Positions 2,194 through 54,918 of a stretch of 64,000 nt of DNA are shown here, piece by piece. Source of the DNA: a virus; the IMG/VR virus record IMGVR_UViG_3300012953_000019, positions 52,287 through 116,286 of that record; one strand, 5' to 3'. Each line of letters starts with the position of its first letter. The first letter of the stretch is position 1. The translations under genes and the position numbers were made by a program. Under the pieces are notes generated by a model. It was not told where the DNA came from, ran no database searches, and saw only the letters and a program-made list of their open reading frames with translations.

Positions 2194-5100
2194 ATGGCAC
2201 TAGACCTTAACGTATCACCATATTATGACGATTTTGATGCATCAAAACAGTTTGAAAAAGTTCTTTTCAAACCTGGTGTAGCCGTACAGGCGCGAGAATT
2301 AACTCAACTTCAGTCATATCTTTCTAACGCTATCAACAATTCTGCTAGGTTTGCTCTTTCAGATGGTCAAAGAGTATTTGGTGGTGAGTCCACAATTTTA
2401 CGTAAACCATATATTAAAATCAATGATGTTGACGCTTCTGGCACTACCGTTGTAGATGCTGATCTATCAACATATGTAGGAGATACGATTACAGGATCAG
2501 TTACTGGAATCACAGCAAAAATTTTATCATCGCAAACTGGTACTGACTCTGATAATAGAGATAAGAAAACTTTTTACCTAGCTTATACTGGTGGTAATCC
2601 TACTGGCGCTGGATCTGAGGGTAGTTCGATTCACTTTGACACAGGAGAAACTCTCACTGTATCATCAACTGTAACTGCTAGAAATGGTAAGACATTTGTA
2701 GTTGATAATACAGTAAGTAATACTGACGTATCTTTAAACTATTATGGGTATGGATTGTTTTTCGTAATTGCAGATGGTGTATTTTTTGCAAAAAAACAAT
2801 TTGTAACTCACAACAGACAAGAAATTTTATTAGACAAATATAAAACTAATGGAAGTTTTTACGTAGGTCTTAAAGTAACTGAATCTGTAGTAAATTCTGA
2901 TTCTGATGCATCTCTACTTGATCCTTCATCTGGTTCATTTAATTACAACGCACCGGGTGCAGATAGATATAAAGTCACAACGACACTTTCTAAGAAATCA
3001 CTTACAGTCGATAACAATTTCCAGTTAGAAGCCGACGAAGATTTCGTTGCGGTTGACAAAATTATAGATGGTAGTTATTATCAAAAACTTCCAGACGATG
3101 CTGGCGCTCTTGCTGAATTGGGTAGAATTCTTGCTGAAAGAACGCATGAAGAATCTGGTAACTACATGGTTCATCCATTTACTTTGCAGGTTCAAGAGCA
3201 TCTTAAAACTTCTTTTAACAAGGGTAGATTTGCGCCTGACGATCCTGACAGACCAGGAAACTCGCAAAAATTAGCGTGTATTATTGGTAATGGTACTGCA
3301 TATGTTGGTGGATATAGATATAATTTTCAAACTCCAACAGTAGTAGATATTGATAAAGCAACAACGACCGCAATTCAAGAAGGACAAACAATATCGACAG
3401 GATACGGAAACTATTTCATTGTAGATGAATTTGTCGGTGCTTGGAATATTAAAGATGGAGATACAGTAACACTTTATGACACCGCAAAAAATGCGGCATC
3501 TGGTGGTGGTTATGGTTCTACAGCCGCACCAACATCTAGTAATATTGTTGGTCAAGCAAAAATTAAAAATCTATATTACGAATCTGGTACTATTGGCACA
3601 TCAACTTGTAAGTATAGAATATACTTGTATGATATTTCCATAACAAAAGGTAAACTTGAAGACGCTGAAGGAATATACTATTCAAATAGTACTGATAGTG
3701 GATTTGCTGATATAGTTCTTGAGGGTAGTCCTGCAATTGCAAAAATTAAAGAACAAACACAAAACAAATTAATCTTTAGGGCTCCATACTCAAATGCAAA
3801 AACTCTTGCGGCAGCCGGTGGTGGTAGCTATGATACGCAATATTACTATCAAGAAGAATTTGATGTAACTTTTGCTTCTGATGGTACTACAACCATAAGC
3901 ACTACAGGAACATCTCAATTCCCATATTCAGGAAGTGTTACCCAAACAATCATCGATCAAAATTTCATATTGGTAGCAACTCAGGCTGCAACTATTAATA
4001 GCACTGCAACCCAAGAAGGAAGAGTAATTCCACTAACTCCTTCTATGATTACAAGTGCTAGTACTGGTGCAATCAGTTTCGATTTAGGAACTGTTAGTGG
4101 AGCATTTACGGCAAAAATGTTTGTAAAGGTCGTTAATGTTGATGCTCAACCAACACCAAAAATTTTAGTATCTAATGTTTATGTTAAAATCGATACTGCT
4201 ACAAATTTTGGTGGAGCAAACGGTCCATGGGATTTAGGAATATCTGATGTTTTCCAAATAGATGAAGTTTATGTGGGTTCAACTTATTCAGAAGCAACAA
4301 ATAATGTACAAGCCAATTTTGTTTTAGATACTGGTCAAACAGACAATGTTTATGGTCACGGTAAATTAGTTAAGAGTGATACAAAACCAATTTCTACTAC
4401 CAATAAAAAAATAGTTGTAAAATTAAAATGTTTCACACCAAACTATGCGGCTACTGGTGGCACTTATTTTGCAATTGATTCATATCCCGTAGACGATACA
4501 GGAAATACTGGTATTTTTTCATATCAGATGCCTACATATAAATCAATAAAAACAGGACCTTATAGATTACAAGACTGTATTGACTTTAGACCTTATGTTG
4601 TTAATACTGCGGTTACATCAACAGCAACTTTGGCTGCCGCAACTGAAAATCCAACCAGAAGTAATACTATTAATCCTCCTTCTGACGGACTACAACACCC
4701 ATCACCCATAAACAATTTTACAACTGATGTAGAATTTTATCTTGCTAGACAAGATGTAGTAACGATTACACCTACAGGAAAATTTAATGTAATTAAAGGT
4801 GTTCCTTCTCTTAATCCTCAAGTGCCTATAATTCCGGAATCAGAAGGAATGTCAATTGCAGGTATAGGTATTCCTCCATATCCTAGTGTATCTCCATTTC
4901 TCGGAGCTGTTACAGGACATCCAAATGTAGTAGGTAGAAAGCTGACGTTAGCTCGTAGATATTCTATGGCGGACATTAAGAGAATCGAAACAAGAATTGG
5001 TCGATTAGAATACTACACTGCACTTTCTCTCATGGAGCAAGAACAACAAAACATGAACATAGAAGATGCAGATGGAAATACTAGATTTAAAAATGGTATT

Positions 5101-8100
5101 TTTATTAATACCTTTTCGGATCATTCTCTTAGTGATGTAGGAGATCCTGGATTTAAATGTGGTATTGATCCTATATTCAGAAGAGTTGGTCCTGCAAGAG
5201 ATCAAACCCATATTGGATTACAACTGAATTCTACTACTTCTACTGGAATACAACAATCAGCCGAAATTGTTACTCTTCCTTTTACAAAGACAGTATTTTC
5301 AGAAAACAGATTTTCCTCTAAACCAAGAAATTGTGTAGGCGAGTTATTGTTTGATTGGGCAGGAGATTTAGATATTTCGCCTAGAGGCTCTAATTCTGAA
5401 TTGCCACAAGATGCTGGAACTAGATATGTTGATGACAATAGCCTTAATACATTTGGTCAGATGTTAGCAGATGATATTAACAAGGCTCAAATTATAGCAG
5501 ACTATGATATATCATTTACAGGGACAGAAAACGACCCAGTAGTACAGCCATTTGAAAAGATCATACCAGAAAACGAAAAAATCACCGGTCTACATCCCAA
5601 CGGTGGAACCGAGATGTTTCCGCCAGTGGGCATGTCAACAAACGGTGTTTATCAGGAATCCAACACCAGCACTACCATTAATGCTTCGGGGACCGATCAA
5701 AGTGGTCGTCTTGTGGTAGATGTTGATACCAAGGGTACTGTGTCTATGGATGCATATATTGGAGCAGACACAACTACTACTACAAGTGCAAAACTTATAG
5801 GTGAAACAAAATCAAATAGTACTACCATGACGGCTACTGCAACTAAACAAATGCTTACGGCATCCTCGTCAGTTCATGGTATTCAACAAGTAGACGTAGG
5901 TAAAAAATTAATATCGGCTACTTTAGATATGTATATGAGAGAAAAACTGCTCTTCTTTATAGGACAAAGATTAAAACCCAACACTAGAATGTATGGTTTC
6001 TTTGACGGAGAAAAACTAGTTGGTAGTGAATTGTGGTCAATAAGAGATGGCAATACGACTATTGGTGGAGTTACAAAATCTTATATTAAACACGTGGTTG
6101 ATTATAAAAATAATGCAAGCACTCCTAATGATTCTCAAAATTGGTTTGACTATGCTTGGAACATTGGTTCTTTTGGCGGCACTGTACAATCTGGTCATAT
6201 TTCACATGGTAATGTAAAATCAAATGCTGATGGACTTATAGCTGGATTTTTCGAGCTGAGACCAGGAAGATTTCTTGTTGGTGAAAGAATTTTAAGATTT
6301 ACCGATGATGTTAGAGATCGTGCTGAATTTGTAACTACTTCTTGTGAAGCGCCATTCAGTTCCAATGGTATTACTACACAAGCACAAAACACCATTATAT
6401 CTACTGCTGTACCAAAAATTCATTTGGGTAAGACCGCTCCCGCAACTGAACAGGTAGGTGAATGGACACACGTTACTAGTGTTTCTACTACAATTAAAGA
6501 ATTCGATGTTAGTGTGGAAGTAACGACTGATCCCAAACTGCATATTAATCTTGAGAATGATGTTACCACTCACGTTGAAGTATCTGGAGGATTTGATCCT
6601 ATTGCACAAACTTTCTTTGTATCAGAGCCAGACGGTGTTTTTGCTACAGAAGTTAAAGTATTCTTTAGAACAAAATCTGCTACTGAAGGTATTACGTGTC
6701 AAATTAGAGAAGTTATGAATGGATACCCATCAAGAAGCATTTTACCTTATGGTGAAGTCTTTCTCTCGCCATCTGAAGTTGTAACAACTGTAGAAGAAAA
6801 TGATGGAACATTAAGATTCTCACCAGTTGGTCAAGAAGATCAGCCATATGTTACAACGTTTACATTCCCTGCACCAGTTCAACTTAAAGGTGCAACAGAG
6901 TATTGTTTTGTTCTTCTACCAGCTGGTAATAGTCCTGACTATCAAGTTTGGGTTTCTCAACTTGGAGAAAATAGAGTTGGAGTAGGAGTACAAAATCAAC
7001 GTATCTTTGCAGAAGATACAAATATTGGAGGTATGTTATTTACATCATCTAACAATAGAACTTGGAATGCTCACCAAGATGAAGATATGACTTATCAAAT
7101 AACAAAAGCACAATTTGCCACATCTGATGGTACAGTAATGCTTGAAAATCAAAACATTGATTATATGGTAACTACTGATTACACTTCTGGAAGACCAGAA
7201 ACAAACTCTAGAATTACGGGAGTTGATGCCACTTTGGCAAATGGTGGTTCTGGTCACGTAGCGGGTGATATTATTACTATGGCAGATGTTGTTGATGATG
7301 ATGGTAATGTCTTGACTGGTATGAAAATAAAAGTTTTAGCTCCAGCATCTGCAGGAACAATTACATCTTTTGAAATTACTGATCCTGGTACTCCTGCTGT
7401 AGGATTTAATAAAGTATCTTTAGGAACAATTAATCAATCTAGTACAACTGGTACAGGAACAGGAGCATCTATTAGTGCTAATCTGGTAACGGGTCAATTG
7501 AAGTTTATTGATGCCCAAAAGGAGAAAATGGAAGTTAATGTTACTAATGGTTTCTTTAGAAATCAAACTACCGGTGCTTTAATTACTCCACTAAAAGCTA
7601 TTAAAAACCCGAACACTGGTGATCTTACACAGACCATATTTACTGTTACTGATCTTGAAGATAGAAAATATAATCAAGTTAGAACAACGATGAATCTTGT
7701 TGAAAATGATGGTAAAATTGGCTTTGAATATGCACCAACAAAATCAGCAAATGTAAATTCTGCCGGCACAACATATGAACCCCTATCATTAGATACTAGA
7801 AAAGTTACTGATAATGAGAAGTCTGTTCGGTCGTATTCTAATGAAGGATACACTCTAAGTGGTGCAGATACCAAATCTCTACATAAAAGAATTAGTCTAA
7901 ATTCAGGTAGTAATCCAGACTTATCACCAGTCCTCGAAGTTACTGCATTAGGACTATTAACTAGTTCTAATCTAATTAACAATGATAGTACAAATGAAAC
8001 TTTACCAGCATCTGGTAATGCACTATCAAGATTCATTAATTCACCTGTGCAACTTGCAGACGGAATGGAAGCCCAAGATATTCTTGTTCAATGTGCCCTA

Positions 8101-9896: not shown

Positions 9897-10871
9897 ATGG
9901 CTGGCCCAATTACACTAAAAGCAAGTTCGTACCCAGCATCTGCTAGTACAATTCAAGGCGTTAGGGAACTTACGACTGCTGAAATTAGAGATCATATTGC
10001 ATATGTTATTACTAATAAATTTGCAACCGATACCGATGGGACGGGCACTGCTGAATTACAAGTTATTACGGATGCTTTAGATACCGACTACACTGAAGTA
10101 GGAACTTTTACCAATAGAGAAAGAACCGAAGCAGTGGGTACTCACCCAGCTGGTGGTGGCACGACTACTACCACATATAGAATCCAACAGAAAAATGCTG
10201 TAATTTCTGAAAGTGTTACCAGACCATTAAGATGGGATGATAAAAATATCGATGAAATGACTGACGGTCTTATCGATACAGAACTCTTAGATGAAGTTAT
10301 TACTGCTATGGTAACTGAAGATGCCAATACAGTTGGTCAATATCATATTAATACATCAACACCATCTGGTGGAACTTGGGCAGTAAGAGGTACCATTACA
10401 GAAACACAAGTTGATGGAACTGATGTAGCATATAATCTGTATCAAAAAACTGCACCAACAACAGCTGCCGCTACCAATATAAACAGATTGTTAAAGAGTG
10501 ATGGCACGGGTGGTCAAGCAGAAATGACCGATGCTGAAATGGAAACTCTTAACACAGCAATGAGAAATAGAATCATTAGTACTGGTATAGGAACTTATCT
10601 ATTAAATAATGGTCAACCTTCTGCCGCCGGAACTTGGGCTCAGATGGGTTCAACAATGACCGACCAATTAAAAGATGTTACTTCACAAAACTATTCCGGA
10701 GACTATACAGGATCGTACACTGGTTACTATAACAGATTCTTTTCTGGATTTTTAAATGGTGCATATGCTGGTTCATACTCTGGTACATATACTGGAACTT
10801 ATGCTGGCAACACAGTACAATCATCTAGTTCTACACAAGAAACAAAACAGTTGTTCGTAAGAACTGCTTAA
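9897..10871 (+). CDS. Putative structural/fibre protein with C-terminal Y-x-G-x repeats
   Basis: 324 aa, Thr/Gly-rich, SD GAGGA; C-terminal YSGDYTGSYTGY...YAGSYSGTYTGTYAG. Confidence 0.6.
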   Translation: MAGPITLKASSYPASASTIQGVRELTTAEIRDHIAYVITNKFATDTDGTGTAELQVITDALDTDYTEVGTFTNRERTEAVGTHPAGGGTTTTTYRIQQKNAVISESVTRPLRWDDKNIDEMTDGLIDTELLDEVITAMVTEDANTVGQYHINTSTPSGGTWAVRGTITETQVDGTDVAYNLYQKTAPTTAAATNINRLLKSDGTGGQAEMTDAEMETLNTAMRNRIISTGIGTYLLNNGQPSAAGTWAQMGSTMTDQLKDVTSQNYSGDYTGSYTGYYNRFFSGFLNGAYAGSYSGTYTGTYAGNTVQSSSSTQETKQLFVRTA

Positions 10872-10889
10872 AGAGTCTCTTTAAAGTGA

Positions 10890-10897
10890 TATAAATA
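10890..10897 (+). promoter_or_regulatory. T4-type late promoter
   Basis: Exact TATAAATA. Confidence 0.75.
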
Positions 10898-10899
10898 AT

Positions 10900-10930
10900 A
10901 AGGCAGAGCATACCACTCTGCCTTTATTTT
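10900..10930 (+). terminator. Rho-independent terminator
   Basis: 9-bp stem AAGGCAGAG/CTCTGCCTT, 7-nt loop, followed by TATTTT. Confidence 0.7.
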
Positions 10931-10947
10931 AATTATGAGGATATATA

Positions 10948-11409
10948 ATGTCAGATCAACCTAAGTACAAAAACCCAAAATGGATTAATAAAGAAGTACG
11001 CTCTTTAGAGTGTGAGATTCTTATGGGCGAAGAATATCAAAACTGTATTGTCAATGCTGGACCAGTAAAAGATGGATTTGTCAATAAAGACTTTGATGCA
11101 ATTATGGAACTTATTGGTGAAGAAGAAGTGGATCGTCTTACTGCAATAGAAGACGAAAAGAAACTAGCAGAAGAAGAAAAAAAGAAAGAACAAGCAGAAG
11201 TTCATAAAAATAGAATTAAACAAGAAGCCTTGTTTGAAATGAAACTAGAAGCATTTGAAATTCCTATCATCAAAAACTCAAAAAATTCTGAAATGAAAAA
11301 GAATATCCGTAGAGCAAAATCTATTGTAGAAGTGCAGGCGTATTCAACGATACTAATTCAAGAAGAATTAACAGATAGTAATTTGAAGGAACTATTATCT
11401 AATGACTAA
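10948..11409 (+). CDS. Hypothetical protein (possible fibre assembly chaperone)
   Basis: 153 aa, charged helical C-terminus, SD GAGGA, follows fibre genes. Confidence 0.55.
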   Translation: MSDQPKYKNPKWINKEVRSLECEILMGEEYQNCIVNAGPVKDGFVNKDFDAIMELIGEEEVDRLTAIEDEKKLAEEEKKKEQAEVHKNRIKQEALFEMKLEAFEIPIIKNSKNSEMKKNIRRAKSIVEVQAYSTILIQEELTDSNLKELLSND

Positions 11410-12118
11410 AGGCTACGTTTATGTGGCTTCATTAAATAAAGATTATTATCGTGCCGCAAAGATGTCGGCAGAGTCTCTTAAAGATTTTTATCCAGAAGCA
11501 AATATAACACTGTTTACTCACGATGAATGGGTAACAGACGAAGACTATTTAATTTTCAATAACATCATAACCGAAGATGTTCCTGCTAATAACAGAGCAA
11601 AGTTATGGGCATTATCACAAACACCATATGATTTGACTATGTATTTAGATTGTGATACGATGATTGAACATGAAGACATATCTACTATATTTGATTATAT
11701 AGGCAATCATGATATTATCTTTACTAAGAACAGACCATATAATGCAAAAATAACAAAGCTAAATGATACAGAAGAAATGATTTATCATTGTGGTGTGTTT
11801 TTATATAAAAAAACTTCCAAAATAAAATCACTAATGGACAATTGGTACAAAGAATATTTGATACAAATTGATCCTGAATATTGTCTTGACCCTTATCCAG
11901 AAAAAGTAAGACCGTGGGACACATTTACTATGTGGTGGCTTTTAAATAAAACAAGTTTTAAAGATTTAATTAATGTAGGTGAATTTCCATTACCAGATGC
12001 CAGATGGAATTTTTGTATGGGTCAAAGACCAGAAGAATTGAAAGATAAAGATGTTATCATAAGACATTATACATTGAATAGGGTATTTGATTCAAATGAA
12101 TATTATAGACAACCTTAA
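11402..12118 (+). CDS. Glycosyltransferase-like (GT-A fold, nucleotide-diphospho-sugar transferase)
   Basis: DxD motif YLDCD, GVFLY and WDTFT segments, C-terminal IRHY. Confidence 0.7.
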   Translation: MTKGYVYVASLNKDYYRAAKMSAESLKDFYPEANITLFTHDEWVTDEDYLIFNNIITEDVPANNRAKLWALSQTPYDLTMYLDCDTMIEHEDISTIFDYIGNHDIIFTKNRPYNAKITKLNDTEEMIYHCGVFLYKKTSKIKSLMDNWYKEYLIQIDPEYCLDPYPEKVRPWDTFTMWWLLNKTSFKDLINVGEFPLPDARWNFCMGQRPEELKDKDVIIRHYTLNRVFDSNEYYRQP

Positions 12119-12740
12119 TCCAGAACTAAAAAAGATGTTAGAAGATTGGCGAAAATGGTTTGATAAGCAAGATGATCATGATACAATCTTACCAGACCCG
12201 GGTAGAGATTTTGGACATACTTTACAAACAGCAACGTCTTCTGACTATCTTGAAGAGGTAAGAAAAGAAAGCCATAAAGGCACACCAGAATGTGCCATAG
12301 TTACAGACTTTCATGTAAGTCCGGGCTCTCCTAAAAAATATAGAGATTCTTCTTTAGAGTTGTGTACTAATGTTTGTGGTTTTTTAGGAGCAAAGTTTAC
12401 TGCTGTTCACGCATATTATCCAACAAATGGATTTATGGGATGGCATTGCAATTGGGACACTCCTGGGTATAATATTTTGTTGAGTTATACTAAAAATGGA
12501 GAAGGATTCTTTAGACATACTAAAGATTCTAGTATTAAAACGCTACAAGATACTCCTGGTTGGTCAGCAAAAGTTGGATACTTTGGAGGTAAAGATGAAG
12601 ACTCATCTAAACACGTTTGGCATTGTGCTGGTAGTACAGAACCAAGACATACATTAGGATTTGTTATACCAGATTTTAATATGTGGGAAATGATGTGTCA
12701 AGATATAGATGAAGACTGGCGAAGAAGTTTATTTCCTTAA
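12087..12740 (+). CDS. 2OG-Fe(II) oxygenase / cupin-like protein
   Basis: GFMGWHCN and distal VWHCAG...RHTLGF jelly-roll motifs. Confidence 0.6.
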   Translation: MIQMNIIDNLNPELKKMLEDWRKWFDKQDDHDTILPDPGRDFGHTLQTATSSDYLEEVRKESHKGTPECAIVTDFHVSPGSPKKYRDSSLELCTNVCGFLGAKFTAVHAYYPTNGFMGWHCNWDTPGYNILLSYTKNGEGFFRHTKDSSIKTLQDTPGWSAKVGYFGGKDEDSSKHVWHCAGSTEPRHTLGFVIPDFNMWEMMCQDIDEDWRRSLFP

Positions 12741-13432
12741 AAGAACCCCTCTCTTTGTCCAATAATCATATAACGATCATAGACTTTTTTGCCATCCCAT
12801 GAATAATATGTTTGTTGTTTAGTACCCTCATAGCCTACTTCTTCAATACCAACTTGGTCTTTCAATGCTTCTATTGAATTTACACAGTTAATACCATACA
12901 TCTCTTCAACTACATTACTATTCTGTACAGCTAAAATTGCTTGAGGATTCTTTGTTGTCAATTCTTTTAGTGGATACATCTGTTCTGTACACATACAGAT
13001 AACTAGATCAACATCAATCTTATTGAGATTTTCAAACTCAAATGGGACATCTAAATTCCAATGACGAATGTTGACAAACTTTTCTTGAGCATAATGTTTG
13101 TGAAAAATCTTTGACAATTCAATTGACTCTTCATCAATATCTACAAGGTGTATTTGAGATACATCTATATTTTCACACAACAGAGGAACTATTGGAATAC
13201 CTAACCAAGAGTTTAATATTAACACTCGCATAGAACCAGTCTTAGTATAATACTCTTCAATATACTCTTTAACTTCTTCTATTAACCACGTACTGGCTTC
13301 CATGTTATTACCTTCAAGAGATTGTCTAAAGTCAGCCAGCTTATGTGGCATTCTTTTTTCAATTACTGAAAGTGCTTCACCCCAATTCTTAAAGTTGTTT
13401 AGAAAGTTATAATTTAAATTAGAATTTGACAT
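12737..13432 (-). CDS. Class I SAM-dependent methyltransferase-like protein
   Basis: VLILNSWLG (degenerate motif I) then IHLVDID (motif II); start reassigned to ATG 13432, which overlaps the upstream stop. Confidence 0.6.
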   Translation of the reverse strand: MSNSNLNYNFLNNFKNWGEALSVIEKRMPHKLADFRQSLEGNNMEASTWLIEEVKEYIEEYYTKTGSMRVLILNSWLGIPIVPLLCENIDVSQIHLVDIDEESIELSKIFHKHYAQEKFVNIRHWNLDVPFEFENLNKIDVDLVICMCTEQMYPLKELTTKNPQAILAVQNSNVVEEMYGINCVNSIEALKDQVGIEEVGYEGTKQQTYYSWDGKKVYDRYMIIGQREGFF

Positions 13433-14093
13433 CTTCACTTTTCCCCATTGAGTCAAAAATACATACATATGGTAAGTCTCTATACACATGAGTTTCAGTA
13501 TCATGTGGATAAACATACCCTTGATTAAAACTATATACCCAACCAATTGGGAATAGTTTTGTCTTTACAATTCTTCTATTATAGAAAAAGTTATCTAGAC
13601 CACGATAGTACCATAATATTTGATTTTGATATTCATTAAAATATTCGATAATTTCATTACTATTTAGACTGTCATTCCAACGAAGAACTGACGAATTTAA
13701 ATCAGTAAACTTGTGTGGAACATGGCGAGTGTCTTTATACTGTGTATCTAAATCATGCCACCAAGTCTTAACAAAACATAAGCAGTCTTCTGCATCAAAG
13801 TTTGCTATATCATCAATGTTCTTTTGCAGTATGGTATCTAAATCAAAGAACATTTTCTCTCCCCTTTGAGTAACAATAGTCTCATCGAAGAGGTACATTT
13901 TATTCCACCACTTCTCCAATTTGTTACCACCAGGCAATGACAGTATTTTAATTTTAGAATTTATATCTTTACTATCTTCAGTTAGACAATGAAATGTAAA
14001 ATCCATACTCAAGTTTTCAAGACAACTTTCATATAGTTGATTGACATGAGATGCATTGTATTTTGTACCCCATTTTACAGTATAGATATTCAT
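13419..14093 (-). CDS. Glycosyltransferase-like, KWGxKY family (paralog 4)
   Basis: VKWGTKY N-terminus, FHCLTED, FFDLD (DxD), NSSVLRW. Confidence 0.7.
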   Translation of the reverse strand: MNIYTVKWGTKYNASHVNQLYESCLENLSMDFTFHCLTEDSKDINSKIKILSLPGGNKLEKWWNKMYLFDETIVTQRGEKMFFDLDTILQKNIDDIANFDAEDCLCFVKTWWHDLDTQYKDTRHVPHKFTDLNSSVLRWNDSLNSNEIIEYFNEYQNQILWYYRGLDNFFYNRRIVKTKLFPIGWVYSFNQGYVYPHDTETHVYRDLPYVCIFDSMGKSEDVKF

Positions 14094-14908
14094 TCGCCTC
14101 TCCAGTGTTTCAAGAGTTCTGGATGTGTTAAGTTATCTTGTTTTGTACTGCCTCTACTTGCATCTTCAAACGGAAGTAGATCAATATTGAATACACAGAC
14201 AATACAGTTTTCTCTATACTTGGCTACATTCAAATCATCTTCTTCCCATGATCTACCCCTGTTCCAAGAGTATGCCATCCAGGATGGGAAATGATCCCAC
14301 AAGTCTTCTCCGTATCTACCCCATTTCCAGGAGTGATAATTATCAGTACCATCAGTATATGTAAACCAAATCTTTTCTTGATTTGCTAGTACGTCTTCCC
14401 ATATACATTCACATTGATCATCTGACCACGCTTTACATGAACCATTTGTATACGCTCCATGTGATAGTTTAAATCTTCTTGTTTGCATTGGTCTTGGGTC
14501 TTGCCACCAAGACTTCATCTTTGTAGGTCTTTCCATATTGTATGTAATTATAGGAGTTAGATCACCTTGAATAATTACGTCCAAATCGAAAAATATGAAG
14601 CGACCGTTAGGTTTGTCAGGAGCAAAATTATGAGTATTAAATACAAAAGTTTTTGCTCTGTCCCAACACCTTGCCATCCCGTACTTGAAATCTTCCGCAC
14701 CAAACCAATACTTAGGATGAATGTTAGGAATATCAGGAAAATCAATAATAGTAACATCATCATCTATACCTTCTGCGTCATCAGTGTAGCAATAGAAATG
14801 AAACTCAAACTGGTCAGGAGTATTTCTTTTTGCCATATCTTTTAGTCTATTCACAAAATGGGGACCATATTTCGTACCCCATTTAGCACATATATAATTT
14901 ACTCTCAT
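14090..14908 (-). CDS. Glycosyltransferase-like, KWGxKY family (paralog 3)
   Basis: CAKWGTKY, FYCYTDD, FFDLD, NGSC, GTDNY. Confidence 0.7.
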   Translation of the reverse strand: MRVNYICAKWGTKYGPHFVNRLKDMAKRNTPDQFEFHFYCYTDDAEGIDDDVTIIDFPDIPNIHPKYWFGAEDFKYGMARCWDRAKTFVFNTHNFAPDKPNGRFIFFDLDVIIQGDLTPIITYNMERPTKMKSWWQDPRPMQTRRFKLSHGAYTNGSCKAWSDDQCECIWEDVLANQEKIWFTYTDGTDNYHSWKWGRYGEDLWDHFPSWMAYSWNRGRSWEEDDLNVAKYRENCIVCVFNIDLLPFEDASRGSTKQDNLTHPELLKHWRGE

Positions 14909-17406
14909 CTACATTTTCCACATTTTTTGGTGCATATATCTAGTGGCTTTCTTTTTAAATGCTCACTGATATTTGCAAAATCATTATTATGTATTACTTC
15001 ACCTGTAGTAAACCCTGCTAGGTTATTATACTTCATATTGTAAGGATAGTCAATAGGGTGATATGGTAAAAGTTTATTTTCTACCACATCTCTTGCAATG
15101 AAGGCGCAAGGAAAAGCATTGCTAGATGAACCAATATAAAAGTATCCACTTTTTCTAGCATCGCACCACACTGGATCTTTTTCTTTCATTTTAGGTTTAG
15201 TTGTTCTTATTTCATTTTTCTTTGCAAACTGCTTTAGAGTATGAAAGTCTATTGGTTTATCTTTTGCAATAGTATCTTCAATTTGATTCTCTTGTTCTGA
15301 CTTTAACTCAGGCAATACTTTTTGTATATGATCAACATATACAAGAGATTCTATATCACTAAATGTCTGTAAAGTTATAGTAATATTTTTGTCTTTTAGA
15401 TACTTGCATATTTCTTCCAACTCTACACAGTTTACTGGGTCTGTTATCTCACACATAAAAGTTACCCAAGAAACTTTGTAACTATCGAATATATTTTTTA
15501 TACTTTTTAGAGTGTGTTCATTGCCGTCTACAAAAATGTCATTGAACTCTATGTTCGTATCATTCTGGCGAGTACTTAATTGTATCAGTGCGCCATCTGG
15601 TTCTTCATCTTCATATAGACCACGATACAAATCACTGTATTGTTCTCCATGCATTTGAAAATACTTTATGAGTGTATTTGTATCATCATCTTTCTGATTC
15701 ATGATAGAAAGTAATTCTTCTTTGGGCATGATATTGTATAATCGCTCAAAGACTTTTTCATAATCTTCTTTGTAAAACAATTCTTTTAGATATTCAATAT
15801 AATATTTTTTATATAGTGATTGTATCTCATCCGAATCAGTGTCCCAAAAGATACACTGAATACCATGATCTACTACATTCTTCATAAAGTCTACTTTAAT
15901 TGATGGTAAAGTATTTTTATGCCACATTCTTCTATACAATGCGATTGCTTGTAGTCTAGTTATTTTCCAAAAGTATCTTACTGGTCCGTGTACTTTTACT
16001 TCTTCTGCTACGACTTTGTGCATCTTAGAAATATATCTTTCTTTGTAGAAATCATATACTTCCATTACAGTCTTGTTCCAGTACAATGATTCGTCACCAT
16101 TTACGAGTATTGAATCGTCTGGATAATCAGCAATAAATTTCTTGTGCATAGAAATCATATCACCAGTTTCATAGAGTTCTCTTATAGTCTGTAAATGTAT
16201 TGAATCTATTTGTCTAATAAATGTAGTATCTGATATTTCTCTTTCTAGTTCCGGAAGAGATTTCTTTATATCGTCTACATTACCAGTTAAGTGTGCATCT
16301 ATCTCCGGAAAATCATTTACGAATTTATTTACAAGAGACTGTAAATCATTGCTCTTTATAAGTGATTCGATATCTTCAACAACTTCTTTATTCATAAAAC
16401 GATTCTCTAGCATTTCATCTGTCAGAGATTTCATTCCTAACCATTCTTTTAGGGTATTGAAATTCTTTGAGTACTGGTCCCAATCAGACTGTAAGCTAGG
16501 TAAATCTTTTGCAAACTTTTTTTCTAGTGTATCGTAGTCTTTATTTGTGAGAAGATTCTCAATCTTAACCGTGTGCTTGTTTCTAGTAAAGAAGTTTTTA
16601 GGAAATTTAGGTAACCACAACTTTTCAAATTCATCTTTGCCGTGCCAATGTATGAGTAGATTGTAGTTTTTTAATTCATGTGGCTTTACATTTTTACTTT
16701 TTTTATTTACTAAATCTACATTGAATAGACAAAATTTGGCATTTTCTCTGTATAGTTGTTCTGTAGTATCATCGGGATATTGTTTACCTCTATTATAAGA
16801 GTACACCCAATCTACTGGTAAGAAACTCCAGTAGTTATCACCCACTACTTGATGTTCTCTGTAGGGATAGTAATTATCTGTGCCTTTGTAGAATGTTTTA
16901 AATACAACATCTTTGTGTTGCATAACATCGTTATAAATCTTTTCTCCTTGATCAGTACACCATAACATTACACTTGAGTTATACAGTGACCCTCTTATAT
17001 CTAAGAATCTTCTATCAGAAGTTACTTCTGGATTTTCCCAGTTAGAATATATCATGTGAGGAGATTTGGCTAGCTGTTCTATATCATCTATGTTGTTTTG
17101 AATCACAACATCTAAATCTAAGTAGCAGAAGGGTCCTTTAGTTTTTAGCCATATATGAGAATTGAGCATGAGAAACTTGGCTCTATCCCAGCAATAATTT
17201 TCTTTACCAAACCAATATCTTGGATGAAGTGGGTCAACATTAGGAATAGGTCGAGTAGTAATACCCTTGTTTATACCTTCTGGCTCATCTGTATAGCAGA
17301 TAAATTTAAAACGCTTGGAGTAATTGCGCTTAACCATTCCATGAAGGTTGTTTACATAATCCGAGGTGTATTTGTTACCCCATTTTATGCATAGAAAATG
17401 CATCAT
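14905..17406 (-). CDS. KWGxKY-family glycosyltransferase fused to helical repeats and a degenerate radical SAM/SPASM-like C-terminus
   Basis: CIKWGNKY, YLDLD, NSSVM, GTDNY in first ~260 aa; C-terminal WC...FPCAF...CTKKCG. Confidence 0.65.
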   Translation of the reverse strand: MMHFLCIKWGNKYTSDYVNNLHGMVKRNYSKRFKFICYTDEPEGINKGITTRPIPNVDPLHPRYWFGKENYCWDRAKFLMLNSHIWLKTKGPFCYLDLDVVIQNNIDDIEQLAKSPHMIYSNWENPEVTSDRRFLDIRGSLYNSSVMLWCTDQGEKIYNDVMQHKDVVFKTFYKGTDNYYPYREHQVVGDNYWSFLPVDWVYSYNRGKQYPDDTTEQLYRENAKFCLFNVDLVNKKSKNVKPHELKNYNLLIHWHGKDEFEKLWLPKFPKNFFTRNKHTVKIENLLTNKDYDTLEKKFAKDLPSLQSDWDQYSKNFNTLKEWLGMKSLTDEMLENRFMNKEVVEDIESLIKSNDLQSLVNKFVNDFPEIDAHLTGNVDDIKKSLPELEREISDTTFIRQIDSIHLQTIRELYETGDMISMHKKFIADYPDDSILVNGDESLYWNKTVMEVYDFYKERYISKMHKVVAEEVKVHGPVRYFWKITRLQAIALYRRMWHKNTLPSIKVDFMKNVVDHGIQCIFWDTDSDEIQSLYKKYYIEYLKELFYKEDYEKVFERLYNIMPKEELLSIMNQKDDDTNTLIKYFQMHGEQYSDLYRGLYEDEEPDGALIQLSTRQNDTNIEFNDIFVDGNEHTLKSIKNIFDSYKVSWVTFMCEITDPVNCVELEEICKYLKDKNITITLQTFSDIESLVYVDHIQKVLPELKSEQENQIEDTIAKDKPIDFHTLKQFAKKNEIRTTKPKMKEKDPVWCDARKSGYFYIGSSSNAFPCAFIARDVVENKLLPYHPIDYPYNMKYNNLAGFTTGEVIHNNDFANISEHLKRKPLDICTKKCGKCR

Positions 17407-18028
17407 AATATTTCTGTCTCAAATTTACTTTTGTTTCATTTTGTCCATTCAACAATACAATAGGATATTCTGGTTTTATTTGAAATTCTCTTGGTGAAGT
17501 ATCAGTGTCTTGATCCACTCCACATAGGAAAGAATATATCATACCTTTAGGAAAAGTATGCTGTATTAACTTTTCATGATACAGAAACCAATCATCATTG
17601 TCGTTATATTTAGTCATGTAGTAATACGGATTTTCTATCCAGTGATCAAATATGTATTTACAATCTTTTGAATTCCATGTCATAACAGAAGAATTAAACT
17701 CACTACCAAAATCTTTCCAATATGTTTTACATATCGTGGGGTGCTTACAATATTTAAAAAATATATCTACATCAGATTGTAACACAATATCTAGGTCTAA
17801 GTAAAGAACTTTACCAATATTTGTTAGACTAAATAGTTGTATCTTTTTCCAATGACTTTCGATATCTTTATTAATGAACTTAACATCTATTTCAGGTCGA
17901 AGTAGATGGGCATGATCTTTATCGGTTAAACAAACATAGTTATATTTGCCACCAGTGGCATCATATATTCTGTGAACATCATCTACGGTGTACTTATTTC
18001 CGTAAAGAAGCGTAAGAATAGTCTTCAA
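17375..18028 (-). CDS. Glycosyltransferase-like, KWGxKY family (paralog 1)
   Basis: LLYGNKY, VCLTD, YLDLD, NSSVMTW; TTG start with GGAG SD. Confidence 0.7.
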   Translation of the reverse strand: MKTILTLLYGNKYTVDDVHRIYDATGGKYNYVCLTDKDHAHLLRPEIDVKFINKDIESHWKKIQLFSLTNIGKVLYLDLDIVLQSDVDIFFKYCKHPTICKTYWKDFGSEFNSSVMTWNSKDCKYIFDHWIENPYYYMTKYNDNDDWFLYHEKLIQHTFPKGMIYSFLCGVDQDTDTSPREFQIKPEYPIVLLNGQNETKVNLRQKYYDAFSMHKMG

Positions 18029-18045
18029 GTCTAAACTCCATGTTA

Positions 18046-18053
18046 TATAAATA
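18046..18053 (+). promoter_or_regulatory. T4-type late promoter
   Basis: Exact TATAAATA. Confidence 0.8.
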
Positions 18054-18080
18054 GATTACAGAACAGAGGAACTGCAATAT

Positions 18081-18407
18081 ATGGCAACGGTAAATAATAT
18101 CGTGATTGATCAGGGCACTACCTTTTCATTTACGGTCAATCTTACGAATGACGATGGCACTAAGAAAGATTTGACGAATTATACCGTCACTTCTCAGATG
18201 CGTAAAAGTTATTATACTACTACTTATACGTCATTTACCACAGCTAAAATAGCACTAGAGGGGCAGATTACCATATCTTTGACCGCCGCTCAATCATCTG
18301 CTATAAAGGCTGGCAGATATGTTTATGATATTGAGATTGCTAGTTCAACTGAAACATTAAGAATTATGGAAGGAATCGTGACTGTAACTCCTGAGGTTAC
18401 CAAGTAA
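18081..18407 (+). CDS. Small conserved virion protein (beta-sandwich)
   Basis: NIVIDQGTTF...GRYVYDIEI...RIMEGIVTVTP pattern common in marine T4-like structural regions. Confidence 0.65.
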   Translation: MATVNNIVIDQGTTFSFTVNLTNDDGTKKDLTNYTVTSQMRKSYYTTTYTSFTTAKIALEGQITISLTAAQSSAIKAGRYVYDIEIASSTETLRIMEGIVTVTPEVTK

Positions 18408-18685
18408 TGGCAGTAAAAGTAAACATACCATCAAACTCAAGTACTACTAAGGTTAGTATACCATCAACGAGTACTATTGCTACAGTTACGACTACACAAT
18501 CTCAGGCAATTACAAATGCAAAGTTACAAAATTTAGCCAATATTGATACCGCAACTAATGGTTTATTGGATGGACACACTTTGGTTTATGATGAAGAAAC
18601 GGGCAACTTTGTTGCTCAAGCATTAACTGCTTCCGTTGATATTGATTCATTGAATCTAACATCATTGGATGGCGGAACTTATTAG
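18407..18685 (+). CDS. Small structural/fibre-associated protein ending in LDGGTY
   Basis: 92 aa, coupled by TAATG overlap; shares DGGTY terminus with the next gene. Confidence 0.55.
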   Translation: MAVKVNIPSNSSTTKVSIPSTSTIATVTTTQSQAITNAKLQNLANIDTATNGLLDGHTLVYDEETGNFVAQALTASVDIDSLNLTSLDGGTY

Positions 18686-18744
18686 TGACTTTTTATTTCG
18701 TTATGAACAAAGATTTCAATAAACCTAGAATGAGGAAACATTAA

Positions 18745-20007
18745 ATGGCAACAACAATTCAAATAAAGCGATCCACTGCTTCAGCCGCACCCGGAACAGG
18801 TGACTTAGCAGAAGCGGAACTCGCGTATAGCCAAGATAAAAGTAACGATGGCGCAGGTGCCATACTTTATATTGAATCCGTAAATAACGATAGTAGCCAA
18901 GTAATTCATAAACTTGGTGGTAAATTTTACACTGATATCGTTGACGGCGCAACCAATGCAAATACTGCAAATAAACTTGTAAAAAGAGATGCTAGTGGCA
19001 ACTTTGCGGCTGGTACTATTACGTTTGGCAGTCTTACTGATGGTACAATCACAGCAACTGGCTTTGTTGACGAAGATAATATGGCATCTAATAGTGCTAC
19101 ACTTATCCCAACTCAACAATCAGTTAAAGCATACGTAGATTCTAAAGATTTCTATGTAGACCTTGGTATAGCTGGCGATTCTGGTACTGGAGCAATTACA
19201 GATGCAGAAACACTTACTCTTACTGGTGGAACAGGTATCACAACAGCGGTATCTGGTAACGCAGTTACCCACACACTAGATAACACCGCTGTATCAGCAG
19301 GTAGTTATGGTAGTGCTACTGCTATTCCTACTTTTACAGTAGACGCACAAGGTAGATTGACAGCCGCAGGCACTGCTTCAGTTTCAACTTCATTTACTAT
19401 TGCTGGTGATAGTGGTACTTCAAATGATATTGATGGTGGAGAAACTCTTACTTTTAATGGTACAACAAATGAAATAGAAACCGCAGTATCAGCAAATGCA
19501 GTTACTATTGGTCTTCCTACTAATCCAACTATTGGTGGTAATCTTACTGTTTCTGGTAACTTAACAGTATCAGGTACAACTACAACAGTTGATTCACAGA
19601 ACTTGTCAGTAGTTGATCCTTTGTTTGCACTCGCATCAGGTAACAATTCATCAGATGCAGTTGACATTGGTTTTTACGGACTGTATGACACTTCTGGTTC
19701 ACAAGACTTATATTCAGGTTTCTTTAGAGATGCAAATGACGGTAAGTGGAAACTGTTTAAAGATACACAAACCGTACCGACAACAGTTGTTGATACCACT
19801 GCTACTGGTTATACTGTAGCAACTTTGGTAGCAACTCTGGAAGGTAACGTAACTGGTAATGTTACTGGTACAGTTTCAAGTATTGCAAACCACGATACAG
19901 ACTCATTGAGTGAAGGATCAAGTAATCTTTACTACACATCCGCACGTTTCAATAGTGCATTTGATACTAGACTTGACGCCTCAACTATAGACGGTGGTAC
20001 TTACTAA
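18745..20007 (+). CDS. Tail fibre-like protein (Mtd N-terminal-type start)
   Basis: MATTIQIKRST...P..L.EAELAY; IAGDSGT repeats; DEDNMAS...QQSVKAYV motif; ends IDGGTY. Confidence 0.7.
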   Translation: MATTIQIKRSTASAAPGTGDLAEAELAYSQDKSNDGAGAILYIESVNNDSSQVIHKLGGKFYTDIVDGATNANTANKLVKRDASGNFAAGTITFGSLTDGTITATGFVDEDNMASNSATLIPTQQSVKAYVDSKDFYVDLGIAGDSGTGAITDAETLTLTGGTGITTAVSGNAVTHTLDNTAVSAGSYGSATAIPTFTVDAQGRLTAAGTASVSTSFTIAGDSGTSNDIDGGETLTFNGTTNEIETAVSANAVTIGLPTNPTIGGNLTVSGNLTVSGTTTTVDSQNLSVVDPLFALASGNNSSDAVDIGFYGLYDTSGSQDLYSGFFRDANDGKWKLFKDTQTVPTTVVDTTATGYTVATLVATLEGNVTGNVTGTVSSIANHDTDSLSEGSSNLYYTSARFNSAFDTRLDASTIDGGTY

Positions 20008-20034
20008 TAATTAATTATTTTTTGGAGATGTTAC

Positions 20035-20184
20035 ATGGATGAGAAATTAGTGAATCAATATATTCAAACTATGGCGGAAGAAATTAATCGCCTAACACAA
20101 GAAAATATTGTTTTGAAATCAAAGTTAGTGGTTGCTACACAATCATTGAATGCTCAGAATGAAGAAACAAAAGAAGAGGACTAA
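20035..20184 (+). CDS. 49-aa coiled-coil protein (not in ORF track)
   Basis: MDEKLVNQYIQTMAEEINRLTQENIVLKSKL...EED*, SD GGAG, stop abuts next ATG at 20185. Confidence 0.7.
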   Translation: MDEKLVNQYIQTMAEEINRLTQENIVLKSKLVVATQSLNAQNEETKEED

Positions 20185-34903: not shown

Positions 34904-34908
34904 GTGCG

Positions 34909-34916
34909 TATAAATA
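34909..34916 (+). promoter_or_regulatory. T4-type late promoter for iscU
   Basis: Exact TATAAATA directly after the gp23 terminator. Confidence 0.8.
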
Positions 34917-34948
34917 GTAGTACTTCTAACAGTACAGGAGATACTGAA

Positions 34949-35326
34949 GTGGCATATAGCGATAAAGTTATAGATCACTATGAAAATCCTCGAAACGTAG
35001 GCAAATGGGATCCAGACACAGATGGTATTGGCACCGGCATGGTAGGTGCACCCGCGTGTGGAGATGTTATGAGACTACAGATTAAAGTCGAAGATGATGT
35101 GATCACAGATGCAAAATTTAAAACATACGGATGCGGTTCTGCAATCGCTTCCAGTTCATTACTAACAGAGTGGGTAAAGAACAAGACCCTAGAAGAAGCA
35201 GGTCAGATAAAGAATACAGAACTTGCTGAAGAATTGGCTCTTCCACCTGTAAAAATACATTGCAGTGTACTAGCAGAGGATGCTATTAAGGCTGCCATTG
35301 AAGACTACAAGGAAAAATATGCCTAA
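34949..35326 (+). CDS. iscU: Fe-S cluster scaffold IscU
   Basis: GTG start with AGGAG SD gives MAYSDKVIDHYENPRNVG...GAPACGDVM...YGCGSAIASSS...LPPVKIHCSVLAEDA; three conserved Cys. Confidence 0.95.
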   Translation: MAYSDKVIDHYENPRNVGKWDPDTDGIGTGMVGAPACGDVMRLQIKVEDDVITDAKFKTYGCGSAIASSSLLTEWVKNKTLEEAGQIKNTELAEELALPPVKIHCSVLAEDAIKAAIEDYKEKYA

Positions 35327-36062
35327 AATAATGATATTTGGTGATAGTTATGCGGCAGATTATGAAATCGCAAAATCTTGGACTCGGAGTGTAGCAGAAG
35401 AATTTCCTGAGTATACATTTCAAAATCTTGCTGTGGCTGCTTCTAGTTTAGATTATCTTTACTTCACATATGAAAAATGGAGAGCGCACCTTAAGGCAAA
35501 TGATATTGTTATTATGTCTCTGACAGCCATGGAAAGATTATTTTTAAGAGATCCTACAATATCTGGTCGTCCAAGATTTATGACTACTCATCAAATAACA
35601 CCTGCGAAAAATGATCGTACTCCAGCACCAGATGACCATAAACTTCAAGAGTTTTTTGCAGGAGATATGTTCAATCCGGATGCACATGGTGCCATAATGA
35701 ATATTTTCTTAAACGCTTTACAATATGATGCAATAACAAAAGATATAACAGTAGTTGTAATACCTATAGGTGGTGATAACTATATAAACAGAGAAGATAA
35801 AGAACATATTGAAATAGCAATGTGCGGAGAAGATCCAGGTTCGGCTGAAGCTGGCTTGACAGGAGTTACAAAAAGACAGATGGAAGCCATGTTTGATTTA
35901 AAAGGTAAATTCTGGCATGAAAGAAAAGAATGTTGGGAACAAGATTTTAAACACGCAAACCATCTTACTCCAAGAAACAATAAAGTATTAGCAAATAAAG
36001 TTATACGAAACATTCGTACAAAAGAACCTATAGATTTGAGAACAGAATGGGTGTATAAATAG
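35319..36062 (+). CDS. SGNH/GDSL-hydrolase-like protein
   Basis: IFGDSY block I and C-terminal ANHL; start taken at ATG 35319. Confidence 0.55.
   Translation: MPKIMIFGDSYAADYEIAKSWTRSVAEEFPEYTFQNLAVAASSLDYLYFTYEKWRAHLKANDIVIMSLTAMERLFLRDPTISGRPRFMTTHQITPAKNDRTPAPDDHKLQEFFAGDMFNPDAHGAIMNIFLNALQYDAITKDITVVVIPIGGDNYINREDKEHIEIAMCGEDPGSAEAGLTGVTKRQMEAMFDLKGKFWHERKECWEQDFKHANHLTPRNNKVLANKVIRNIRTKEPIDLRTEWVYK
36054..36061 (+). promoter_or_regulatory. T4-type late promoter for iscA
   Basis: Exact TATAAATA ending 5 nt before the iscA ATG. Confidence 0.65.
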
Positions 36063-36066
36063 TAGC

Positions 36067-36378
36067 ATGATACAAATTTCAGCAGATGCAAAGAAATACT
36101 GGACCGAACTATTAGAGTCTTCGGGACAAAAGTATGTGCGACTATCTCTTAAAGGTGGTGGTTGTGCTGGATTCGCTTACACATGGGATTATACAGAAGA
36201 TGATTCGAATGGTACACTTGTAGATAACATCATTGTAGTAGATGATGTATGCACAGATATTATGTCAGGTTCTATAATTAATTTTGTTACCAGTATGACT
36301 GGTTCTGAAATACAGATCATAAATCCCAATGAAGCAAGTTCATGTGGTTGTGGTGAAAGTATTCAGTTTAGTGTTTAA
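36067..36378 (+). CDS. iscA: A-type Fe-S carrier IscA/HesB family
   Basis: LKGGGCAGFAY and SSCGCGES motifs. Confidence 0.9.
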   Translation: MIQISADAKKYWTELLESSGQKYVRLSLKGGGCAGFAYTWDYTEDDSNGTLVDNIIVVDDVCTDIMSGSIINFVTSMTGSEIQIINPNEASSCGCGESIQFSV

Positions 36379-52963: not shown

Positions 52964-53898
52964 GTGAACGCAATGAATTTTTATTTGTGGAGAAGTACAG
53001 ACCACAAACTATCGATGATTGCGTTTTACCAGATTCAGTCAAAGAAACATTTAAACAATTTGTAGTAAAGGGTGAGATACCCAATCTACTACTGTGTGGT
53101 ACTGCCGGTACTGGTAAGACAACAGTTGCTAGAGCCTTGTGTAATGAATTAGATTGTGATGTAATCATGATCAATGGTTCTGAAGAATCTGGTATCGATG
53201 TATTACGTACCAAAATCAAAAAGTTTGCAAGTACTATGAGTTTTGAAAACAAAACCAAAGTAGTAATCTTAGATGAAGCAGACTATCTAAATCCAAATTC
53301 TACTCAGCCCGCACTACGGGCATTCATTGAAGAGTTTTCTGCCAACTGTAGATTTATCTTCACTTGTAATTTCAAAAACAGAATCATTGAACCTTTGCAT
53401 AGTAGAACTACTGTGGTCGAGTTCCGTTTGGACAAAGCTGACAAGCCAAAGATGGCAATGCAGTTTCACAAACGCATGAAAGATATTCTGGATATTGAAG
53501 AGATTAAATACTCTGAAAAAGTTCTTGCTGAATTACTCAAGAAACATTTTCCAGATTATCGTAGAGTTCTAAATGAATTGCAACGATATAGTATTGGTGG
53601 TGTGATTGATGAGGGCATACTCAGCAATCTGGCTGAAATGAATGTCAAGGGTCTTGTTGATGCGCTCAAAGATAAAGACTTCAAGAAGATGCGACAATGG
53701 GTAGCCAACAACGTTGACACAGATCCACAGGGCATCTATCGTAAAGTTTACGATGCATTGATTGACAAAGTAAAACAAGTACCACATTTGGTACTATTGA
53801 TTGCTGACTATCAATACAAAGCGGCATTCGTAGCAGATCAAGAAATTAATCTTACTGCCTGCCTAACAGATATCATGGCGTCTGTTGATATAAAATGA
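52960..53898 (+). CDS. gp44: Clamp loader large subunit gp44
   Basis: VEKYRP, GTAGTGKTT, LDEAD, IIEPLHSR, FPDYRR. Confidence 0.95.
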   Translation: MSERNEFLFVEKYRPQTIDDCVLPDSVKETFKQFVVKGEIPNLLLCGTAGTGKTTVARALCNELDCDVIMINGSEESGIDVLRTKIKKFASTMSFENKTKVVILDEADYLNPNSTQPALRAFIEEFSANCRFIFTCNFKNRIIEPLHSRTTVVEFRLDKADKPKMAMQFHKRMKDILDIEEIKYSEKVLAELLKKHFPDYRRVLNELQRYSIGGVIDEGILSNLAEMNVKGLVDALKDKDFKKMRQWVANNVDTDPQGIYRKVYDALIDKVKQVPHLVLLIADYQYKAAFVADQEINLTACLTDIMASVDIK

Positions 53899-54674: not shown

Positions 54675-54918
54675 TTGGTCAGAAGATCATTCACGCATTG
54701 CAGATTTTTCAGAAAAGAATCTGAACGTTTTTATTTCTTTTGATGATAAAGTTTATCCTTGTTGTATGACTGCCAATCAATTACCAGAAAGAGGTGTTGC
54801 TATGAATGGTAGAAACTTACAAGAAGTTGTTGACAGTGGCGAACTTAATGATTTATACTATGACGATCTAAAGAATAATACACCAATAAAATTTTGTGTG
54901 GAGACGTGTGGTAAATGA
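54649..54918 (+). CDS. SPASM/twitch-like Fe-S domain as separate ORF (or frameshifted C-terminus of the radical SAM)
   Basis: VFISFDDKVYPCC ... FCVETCG; +1 frame overlap with upstream ORF. Confidence 0.65.
   Translation: MLQTCISYNWSEDHSRIADFSEKNLNVFISFDDKVYPCCMTANQLPERGVAMNGRNLQEVVDSGELNDLYYDDLKNNTPIKFCVETCGK

Follow-up and report, generated by a model that had tools for sequence, protein, structure and literature searches.

Radical S-adenosylmethionine (SAM) enzymes of the SPASM/twitch branch share one order of domains, a barrel followed by a cysteine domain made of a β-hairpin and a helix, with Cys on both sides of the hairpin and at the C-terminal end (PMC6231123). The SPASM form binds two clusters and is marked by a seven-Cys motif; the twitch form is its truncated version, with one cluster on a β-hairpin and a helix (PMC6231123; PMC9012708), whose ligands lie before the hairpin, after the hairpin and, for two of them, after the helix, as in BtrN and SkfB (PMC6231123). 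Direct evidence for a catalytic function of these auxiliary clusters has long been elusive (PMC9012708). We describe here a phage protein of 833 amino acids (aa), P0001, in which the twitch domain is maintained behind the relic of such a barrel. It is encoded in the window, i.e. the whole stretch of 64,000 nucleotides that was analysed (positions 52,287 to 116,286 of the IMG/VR virus record IMGVR_UViG_3300012953_000019). The source is a T4-like marine myophage, whose gp44 clamp loader shares 60–62% identity with its counterparts in Methylophilales phage Melnitz and Pelagibacter phage HTVC008M. The parts of P0001 are the following, pLDDT being the predicted local distance difference test:

14905–17406, minus strand: whole open reading frame (ORF) of P0001, intact, 833 aa, with a glycosyltransferase (GT)-like domain, helical repeats, a radical SAM relic and a twitch domain
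16621–17406, minus strand: N-terminal KWGxKY/DLD domain, residues 1–262, a paralogue of three adjoining ORFs (PHROG 1962, invariant DLD)
15622–16620, minus strand: all-helical middle, residues 263–595, with three repeats of ~63 aa (pLDDT 80–90)
15307–15621, minus strand: radical SAM barrel relic, residues 596–700, β1-α-β2-α-β3 plus one further strand, without CxxxCxxC (pLDDT 74–94, VIA, hhalign)
15532–15564, minus strand: invariant loop N615-D-T-x3-F-N622-D623-I-F (MAFFT alignment; 36 of 36 loci)
15175–15306, minus strand: charged linker, residues 701–744, weakly conserved and of low pLDDT, in place of barrel strands 4–6 of intact relatives (gap of ~100 residues against P0038, P0047 and P0002)
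14908–15174, minus strand: twitch-type Cys domain, residues 745–833, with C748-x18-C767 around a β-hairpin and C825-x3-C829-x2-C832 at the C-terminus

We call relic the residues ~596–833; the stretch flagged in the preliminary description of this DNA, made from the letters only, corresponds to residues ~603–833. Compared with the twitch enzymes BtrN, SpeY, MoaA and SkfB and with their SPASM relatives SuiB, PqqE and anSME, the part that remains has the same fold (Z 8–10.6). At the opposite, it has neither CxxxCxxC, hence no SAM-binding cluster, nor strands 4–6, nor the seven-Cys SPASM motif, and a GT-like domain and helical repeats are fused in front of it.

The second term of comparison is genomic. 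According to the consulted portion of the pelagimyophage study (PMC7029224), these phages carry GT and radical SAM cassettes in a hypervariable tail-fibre region, and these cassettes are read there as modifying the host O-chain. The enzyme island around P0001 belongs to the same type of phage and has the same setting among tail genes. By contrast with that hypervariable region, its order is conserved across all long loci, and neither this fusion nor a Cys-less radical SAM protein appears in the same portion of the study.

Descent of the C-terminal region

A radical SAM enzyme of the SPASM/twitch branch is the ancestor of the last ~240 residues of P0001. The case for this homology comes from profiles, intermediate sequences and fold, and not from pairwise matches. 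Sought directly, no radical SAM or SPASM match was found in Pfam with the whole P0001, nor in PHROGs or NCBIfam with its last 267 aa (P0004), and the C-terminal profile gave only noise against PDB sequences (best E 0.041). The preliminary description had aligned the C-terminus by eye with two ORFs lying further in the window, the radical SAM core at 53895 (P0002) and the 89-aa ORF at 54649 (P0003). As plain pairs these alignments are not significant: BLASTP gives E 0.017 between residues 630–670 of P0001 and 37–79 of the former, and E 5 with the latter. They are partly rescued by profiles, since hhalign aligns the relic family directly, although weakly, with the 53895 family (E 6.7e-6, 55 columns), and the 54649 profile matches a broad twitch-domain alignment (Prob 96.6, E 5.7e-10). 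The firmest connection goes through fused relatives that still carry the Pfam Radical_SAM domain (PF04055): the C-terminus of the relic family matches them with Prob 99.1 and E 5.7e-19 over 229 columns (E 5e-11 for the barrel alone, 8e-15 for the Cys part alone), and they match in turn the 53895 family (Prob 99.3, E 3.3e-20).

The fold points to the same ancestry. In the AlphaFold model of the last 267 aa the α/β segment is confident (pLDDT 74–94) and the Cys tail weak. Foldseek against PDB placed BtrN, SuiB, SpeY and BlsE on top with this model, so that the structural similarity to radical SAM SPASM/twitch enzymes, expected in the preliminary description, does exist. The VIA wide search, which is independent of Foldseek, gave SuiB (Z 10.6), PqqE (10.4) and BtrN (10.1), all of ranks 1 to 17 being radical SAM enzymes. 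Matches in the viral structure library are phage radical SAM/SPASM proteins, and the search with the full-length AlphaFold model agrees, with radical SAM SPASM/twitch enzymes as best matches. Profile and fold (E 5.7e-19; Z 10.1–10.6) thus bear out the proposal that the C-terminus is a Cys-less, truncated radical SAM barrel followed by an auxiliary-cluster domain.

What is left of the ancestral enzyme appears from the MAFFT alignment. Strand 1 of P0001 (ALIQLS) pairs with HIELT and YEIS of the relatives, and a gap of 10 residues then falls exactly at the CxxxCxxC of P0038, P0040, P0048, P0047 and P0002; residues 596–651 of P0001 contain no Cys, and the loss of this motif, already noticed by eye, is thereby confirmed. 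The loop N-D-T-x3-F-N-D-I-F occupies the place of the loop that follows CxxxCxxC in the relatives. CEITDP pairs with CGNVGEP, a GGE-type motif at the end of strand 2, the acidic residue and the Pro being kept and the glycines lost. TLQT pairs with the TNG strand, the gap of ~100 residues comes next, after β3, and the twitch domain is finally aligned residue for residue. In agreement with such a truncation, the full-length AlphaFold model predicts only four strands in the barrel relic (residues 605–608, 647–650, 676–681 and 693–696). Because the CxxxCxxC segment is deleted and only about four of the six barrel strands are left, the relic has to be considered, from its sequence, as unable to cleave SAM.

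The distant relatives, gathered by an exhaustive phmmer search with the C-terminal piece, are of four kinds. P0034–P0036 are short forms with the same relic, which keep the N-D-T-G-x-x-F-N-D loop and have no helical repeats; in P0038, P0040 and P0048 (500–521 aa) the CxxxCxxC is intact, and the Pfam cut-offs for Radical_SAM and/or SPASM are passed; in P0041, P0044 and P0046 the Cys motif is gone and the barrel full-length; and P0047 is a stand-alone radical SAM–twitch protein of 341 aa. The closest intact relatives are P0038, P0040 and P0048, one of which is labelled “MoaA/NifB/PqqE/SkfB family radical SAM enzyme” by JGI. As in P0001, strand 1 is preceded in them by the junction motif LY..GLY..P, and the twitch domain is the same; they differ from P0001 by their CxxxCxxC and full barrel, by the absence of helical repeats and by an N-terminus without DxD. 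These intact fused forms are rare (three clusters): a word-index search with their alignment gave only the three known proteins, IMG/VR pattern scans with P0038 and P0041 found no loci, and the IMG/VR scan with the intact-form alignment found a single one, the contig L049.

In a maximum-likelihood tree all relic forms make one clade (support 100/99), nested in the group of fused forms (100/98) and apart from the stand-alone enzymes; the tree gives no firm order among intact, Cys-less and relic forms. The homology proposed with the 53895/54649 cassette holds in the sense of a common radical SAM–twitch clade, the cassette being only a distant paralogue. Both share the motifs TL..ik.I, CGN.GDP/CEITDP, ICxYF, a hairpin with ..PC and C...CG(K), with only ~25% identity over 43–55 aligned residues; unlike the relic, the cassette is intact, and two overlapping ORFs encode it.

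Conserved residues, N-terminal domain and repeats

An IMG/VR scan found 48 viral loci matching P0001, and a word-index search 19 full-length homologues (47–81% identity, 617–912 aa). The pattern WC...PC...CxxxCGxC shows no exception among 18 homologues or in 36 of 36 viral loci, which means that C748, C767, C825, C829 and C832 are never changed; the conservation of the Cys, on which the preliminary description relied, is thus verified. The loop residues N615, D616, F621, N622, D623, I624 and F625 are also kept in 36 of 36 loci, E653 and P657 are likewise invariant in homologues and loci, and this invariance of the motifs holds down to 45% identity among homologues. The barrel relic has a ratio of non-synonymous to synonymous substitution rates (dN/dS; Nei-Gojobori, 58–65 pairs of viral loci) of 0.036, and the twitch domain one of 0.022: the relic is under strong purifying selection. 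Two other Cys on the minus strand, Cys 652 (in CEITDP; 15451–15453) and Cys 667 (in ICKY; 15406–15408), are kept in the 36 loci as well; they pair with conserved Cys of the intact relatives and of the 53895 family (LCGN, ICxYF), and are absent from some distant homologues.

The layout of the five Cys fits the definition of a twitch domain: C748 and C767 flank a predicted hairpin, and C825, C829 and C832 end the chain. In the numbering of P0004, strands 189–192 and 197–199 form the hairpin and are followed by a helix (202–210), at a confidence of 50–70. The term “SPASM-like”, used in the preliminary description, should be abandoned, because the seven-Cys motif CX9-15GX4C-gap-CX2CX5CX3C-gap-C is not found in P0001, which has no CX2CX5CX3C. 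Only the first half of the motif is recognisable, as C-x18-C, the G-x4-C being seen in relatives such as P0038. Pfam SPASM (PF13186) does not match P0001; P0034 (E 3e-3) and P0036 (E 3e-4) are borderline, and P0038, P0040 and P0047 pass. The extra CxxC (C829, C832) is specific to the relic clade. Altogether we consider it sound that P0001 carries, after its GT-like domain and a helical spacer of variable length, a pseudoenzyme module derived from a radical SAM enzyme, with the twitch Cys site kept.

The N-terminal domain is probably a GT-A-like sugar transferase, on weak evidence, and not a proven glycosyltransferase. The name “glycosyltransferase” given at the outset is thus only partly supported. 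In its favour, PHROG 1962 “glycosyltransferase” matches the N-terminus of P0001 (E 1.5e-4) and its 224-aa paralogue (E 2.9e-9), the DxD motif D97-L98-D99 is invariant in 18 homologues of P0001 and in five paralogues, and distant tblastn matches of the N-terminus carry annotations of the glycosyltransferase type. Atlas searches gave faint leads towards GT8/Nucleotid_trans, and one GT-like paralogue matches weakly the NCBIfam GT8 RfaI (E 0.081). On the other hand, no Pfam, NCBIfam or PDB sequence matches the domain, even with a profile built from six paralogues, and it is poorly modelled in the full-length AlphaFold prediction (pLDDT 30–70). In the phage records, tblastn matches were limited to the first ~180 residues of P0001, and a megablast with the fusion gene gave none. 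The intact fused forms, whose N-terminal domain lacks the DxD, might carry there a dead version of the GT-like domain, but hhalign finds only a marginal similarity between the two (E 1e-4, 41 columns).

The three helical repeats announced by the preliminary description, of consensus D..[ST][LM]..KF..D[FLY]P, are present at residues 290, 353 and 416, with a period of 63 aa. Their copy number varies and accounts for the length differences of the homologues (454–912 aa): 0, 1, 2, 3 and 4 copies correspond to lengths of 454–504, ~620, ~735, ~835 and ~910 aa.

Gene island and other radical SAM genes

P0001 is the second gene of a minus-strand operon of five, in the order 217-aa GT-like, fusion, 272-aa GT-like, 224-aa GT-like and methyltransferase-like genes:

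17375–18028, minus strand: first gene of the operon, 217-aa GT-like paralogue, upstream of the fusion
12737–14908, minus strand: downstream partners, i.e. the 272-aa and 224-aa GT-like paralogues and a methyltransferase-like ORF, in an order shared by the viral loci and L049

The operon converges on a plus-strand arm of three ORFs (hypothetical, GT8-like and oxygenase-like), and the island is flanked by baseplate and tail-fibre genes. This nine-gene enzyme island (window positions 10948–18028) is syntenic in every fetched viral locus that is longer than 9 kb and reaches past the fusion gene (among L002–L048). Across the island loci the C-terminus of the fusion is 54–100% identical and the 272-aa GT-like protein 77–98%, the latter being thus more conserved.

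A related island lies in the distant contig L049. There (2532–7159), a gene of P0048 type, with its intact radical SAM domain, occupies the slot of the P0001 gene, and after it come orthologues of the 272-aa, 224-aa and methyltransferase-like genes. The region is also set among tail-fibre-like genes, and a GNAT acetyltransferase stands where the first GT-like gene would be. As the same neighbours come after an intact form in L049, the relic replaces at this position a working radical SAM enzyme.

The T4-type late-promoter motif TATAAATA is found at 17 sites of the window, for 7.4 expected; 16 of the 17 are on the plus strand, mostly directly upstream of structural genes. A promoter scan returned 34 sites for 32.5 expected, a difference that carries no information.

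The cassette lying further in the window comprises:

53895–54674, plus strand: P0002, stand-alone radical SAM core of 259 aa with CxxxCxxC intact, a distant paralogue of the relic (PF04055, E 1.4e-9)
54649–54918, plus strand: P0003, 89 aa in frame +1, sharing nucleotides with the end of P0002; separated twitch domain of the cassette (hhalign E 5.7e-10; Pfam SPASM E 0.048)

The two ORFs overlap by 26 nucleotides, and their split, with both frames, is conserved in a 165-kb relative at 75% identity (L050, 1501–2551). In the distant homologue P0047 (341 aa) the same domains form a single chain; the split could be either a two-subunit radical SAM enzyme or a conserved programmed frameshift. A TauD/TfdA-family dioxygenase (54915–55718, plus strand; PF02668, E 4.8e-28) begins on the stop codon of P0003, so that it is probably co-translated with the cassette.

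The phage also encodes, at window positions 34904–36378 on the plus strand, an IscU (PF01592, E 5.5e-52) and an IscA-like protein (PF01521, E 2e-4, under the cut-off). A 260-aa ORF without Pfam match lies between them, and TATAAATA occurs at 34909 and 36054. The whole record of 116 kb contains nine Radical_SAM (PF04055) matches. Seven of them form a tandem array of paralogues outside the window (397–532 aa, record positions 10100–20040; L052, 1111–11039), each with a Cys-rich N-terminal extension; a methyltransferase-like ORF precedes the array and a 188-aa ORF interrupts it. The remaining two are a 500-aa radical SAM protein in L053 and the 53895 gene.

The three large relatives with the fusion all have IscU. 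One of these has a gene of the 53895 type and another a related fusion of radical SAM, twitch and short-chain-dehydrogenase-like parts; in the third, 83% complete, which has the fusion and IscU, no 53895 homologue was found. The co-occurrence of fusion, radical SAM and isc genes is thus loose; it fits a general demand for iron-sulfur (Fe-S) clusters, and no specific link is shown. The related fusion (L051, 531–3201, in the 161-kb relative G003) has 576 aa, its short-chain-dehydrogenase-like part being C-terminal, and is immediately preceded by a cytidylyltransferase-cupin ORF and followed by the clamp loader. Both this fusion and its cytidylyltransferase-cupin neighbour point to a putative role of the radical SAM clade in sugar-nucleotide chemistry.

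Possible functions of the relic

The reading that we favour, for which we see about an even chance, is that the relic serves as a metal-binding and non-catalytic docking or recognition module for the glycan chemistry of the island. The pseudoenzyme would still hold a metal centre, for which a [4Fe-4S] or [2Fe-2S] cluster is the likeliest candidate, and would retain the glycan intermediate or the partner enzymes on which its catalytic ancestor once acted. The chemistry itself would be done by the N-terminal GT-like domain, and the 0–4 helical repeats would act as a spacer, setting the distance between the two ends of the protein.

Several points weigh against this view. Catalysis by the N-terminal domain is an assumption, given the slender support for its GT identity. 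The twitch part is of low confidence in both AlphaFold models (pLDDT 35–70), and P0044 lacks two of the four core Cys, so that one relative at least can do without the cluster. An unchanging polar loop where the active site once was is no less compatible with a retained ligand or metal site than with a passive scaffold. Lastly, no TATAAATA late-promoter motif is found on the minus strand near the operon to indicate its timing or its target, virion or host surface.

The polar loop leads to a different proposal, that the barrel relic has been re-tooled: N615, D616, T617, N622 and D623, together with E653 and D656, would bind a divalent cation or a nucleotide(-sugar) and form a second active or regulatory site. 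These polar residues occupy at the ends of strands 1 and 2 the places of the cluster loop and of the GGE-type motif of the relatives, they are kept in 36 of 36 loci, the short forms P0034–P0036 have the loop as well, and the dN/dS is low (0.036). However, no known metal- or nucleotide-binding motif or family is matched, and only half a barrel is available, so that we regard this proposal as rather unlikely. We hold to a similar low degree that the five Cys bind zinc or form disulfides, making without any Fe-S cluster a structural knot that is retained for the stability or oligomerisation of the protein. At the end of a chain, four to five Cys can make a zinc site, the radical chemistry that an auxiliary cluster served is gone, and the additional CxxC is found in the relic clade only. 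The positions of the ligands nevertheless match those of a twitch cluster, and the phage has its IscU and IscA-like genes; neither of these excludes zinc. No better rated is an autonomous twitch Fe-S domain, in which a cluster or pocket would recognise a glycan or a partner without radical chemistry, the repeats being a molecular ruler for the length or position of the glycan.

Should a cluster be maintained, it might also be a sensor of redox state, oxygen or iron that switches the glycosyltransferase, a redox sensor being among the suggestions of the preliminary description. Exposed Fe-S clusters can act as sensors, and this general argument is the only support, apart from the fact that a cluster site conserved in the absence of radical chemistry needs some role. 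Sequence and context give no regulatory hint, and in the oxic surface water inhabited by the hosts a labile cluster would stay permanently oxidised; a sensor is in our opinion improbable. Hardly credible, finally, is that the C-terminus be a decaying remnant devoid of function, or resemble radical SAM enzymes by chance. The insignificant pairwise BLASTP and the absence of a direct match in Pfam, PHROGs, NCBIfam or PDB sequences could be taken in this sense, but the dN/dS of 0.02–0.04, motifs invariant over 36 loci, an hhalign E of 5.7e-19 and Z above 10 with radical SAM enzymes at ranks 1–17 oppose it. Simple decay is ruled out by the dN/dS and the invariant residues.

Whatever the function retained, these data bring to notice a conserved island of several enzymes among the tail genes of pelagimyophage-like phages, whose target would be the virion or the host surface. 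The series going from intact enzymes to full barrels without Cys and then to the truncated relic offers a clean case of an enzyme domain becoming a pseudoenzyme module. Besides, the role of SPASM/twitch auxiliary clusters remains a matter of debate. Here half of the barrel is gone together with the radical SAM cluster, yet the twitch Cys set is kept under strong selection in a widespread group of marine phages. If a cluster is bound, its job would be independent of SAM cleavage, and P0001 would allow that job to be studied alone.

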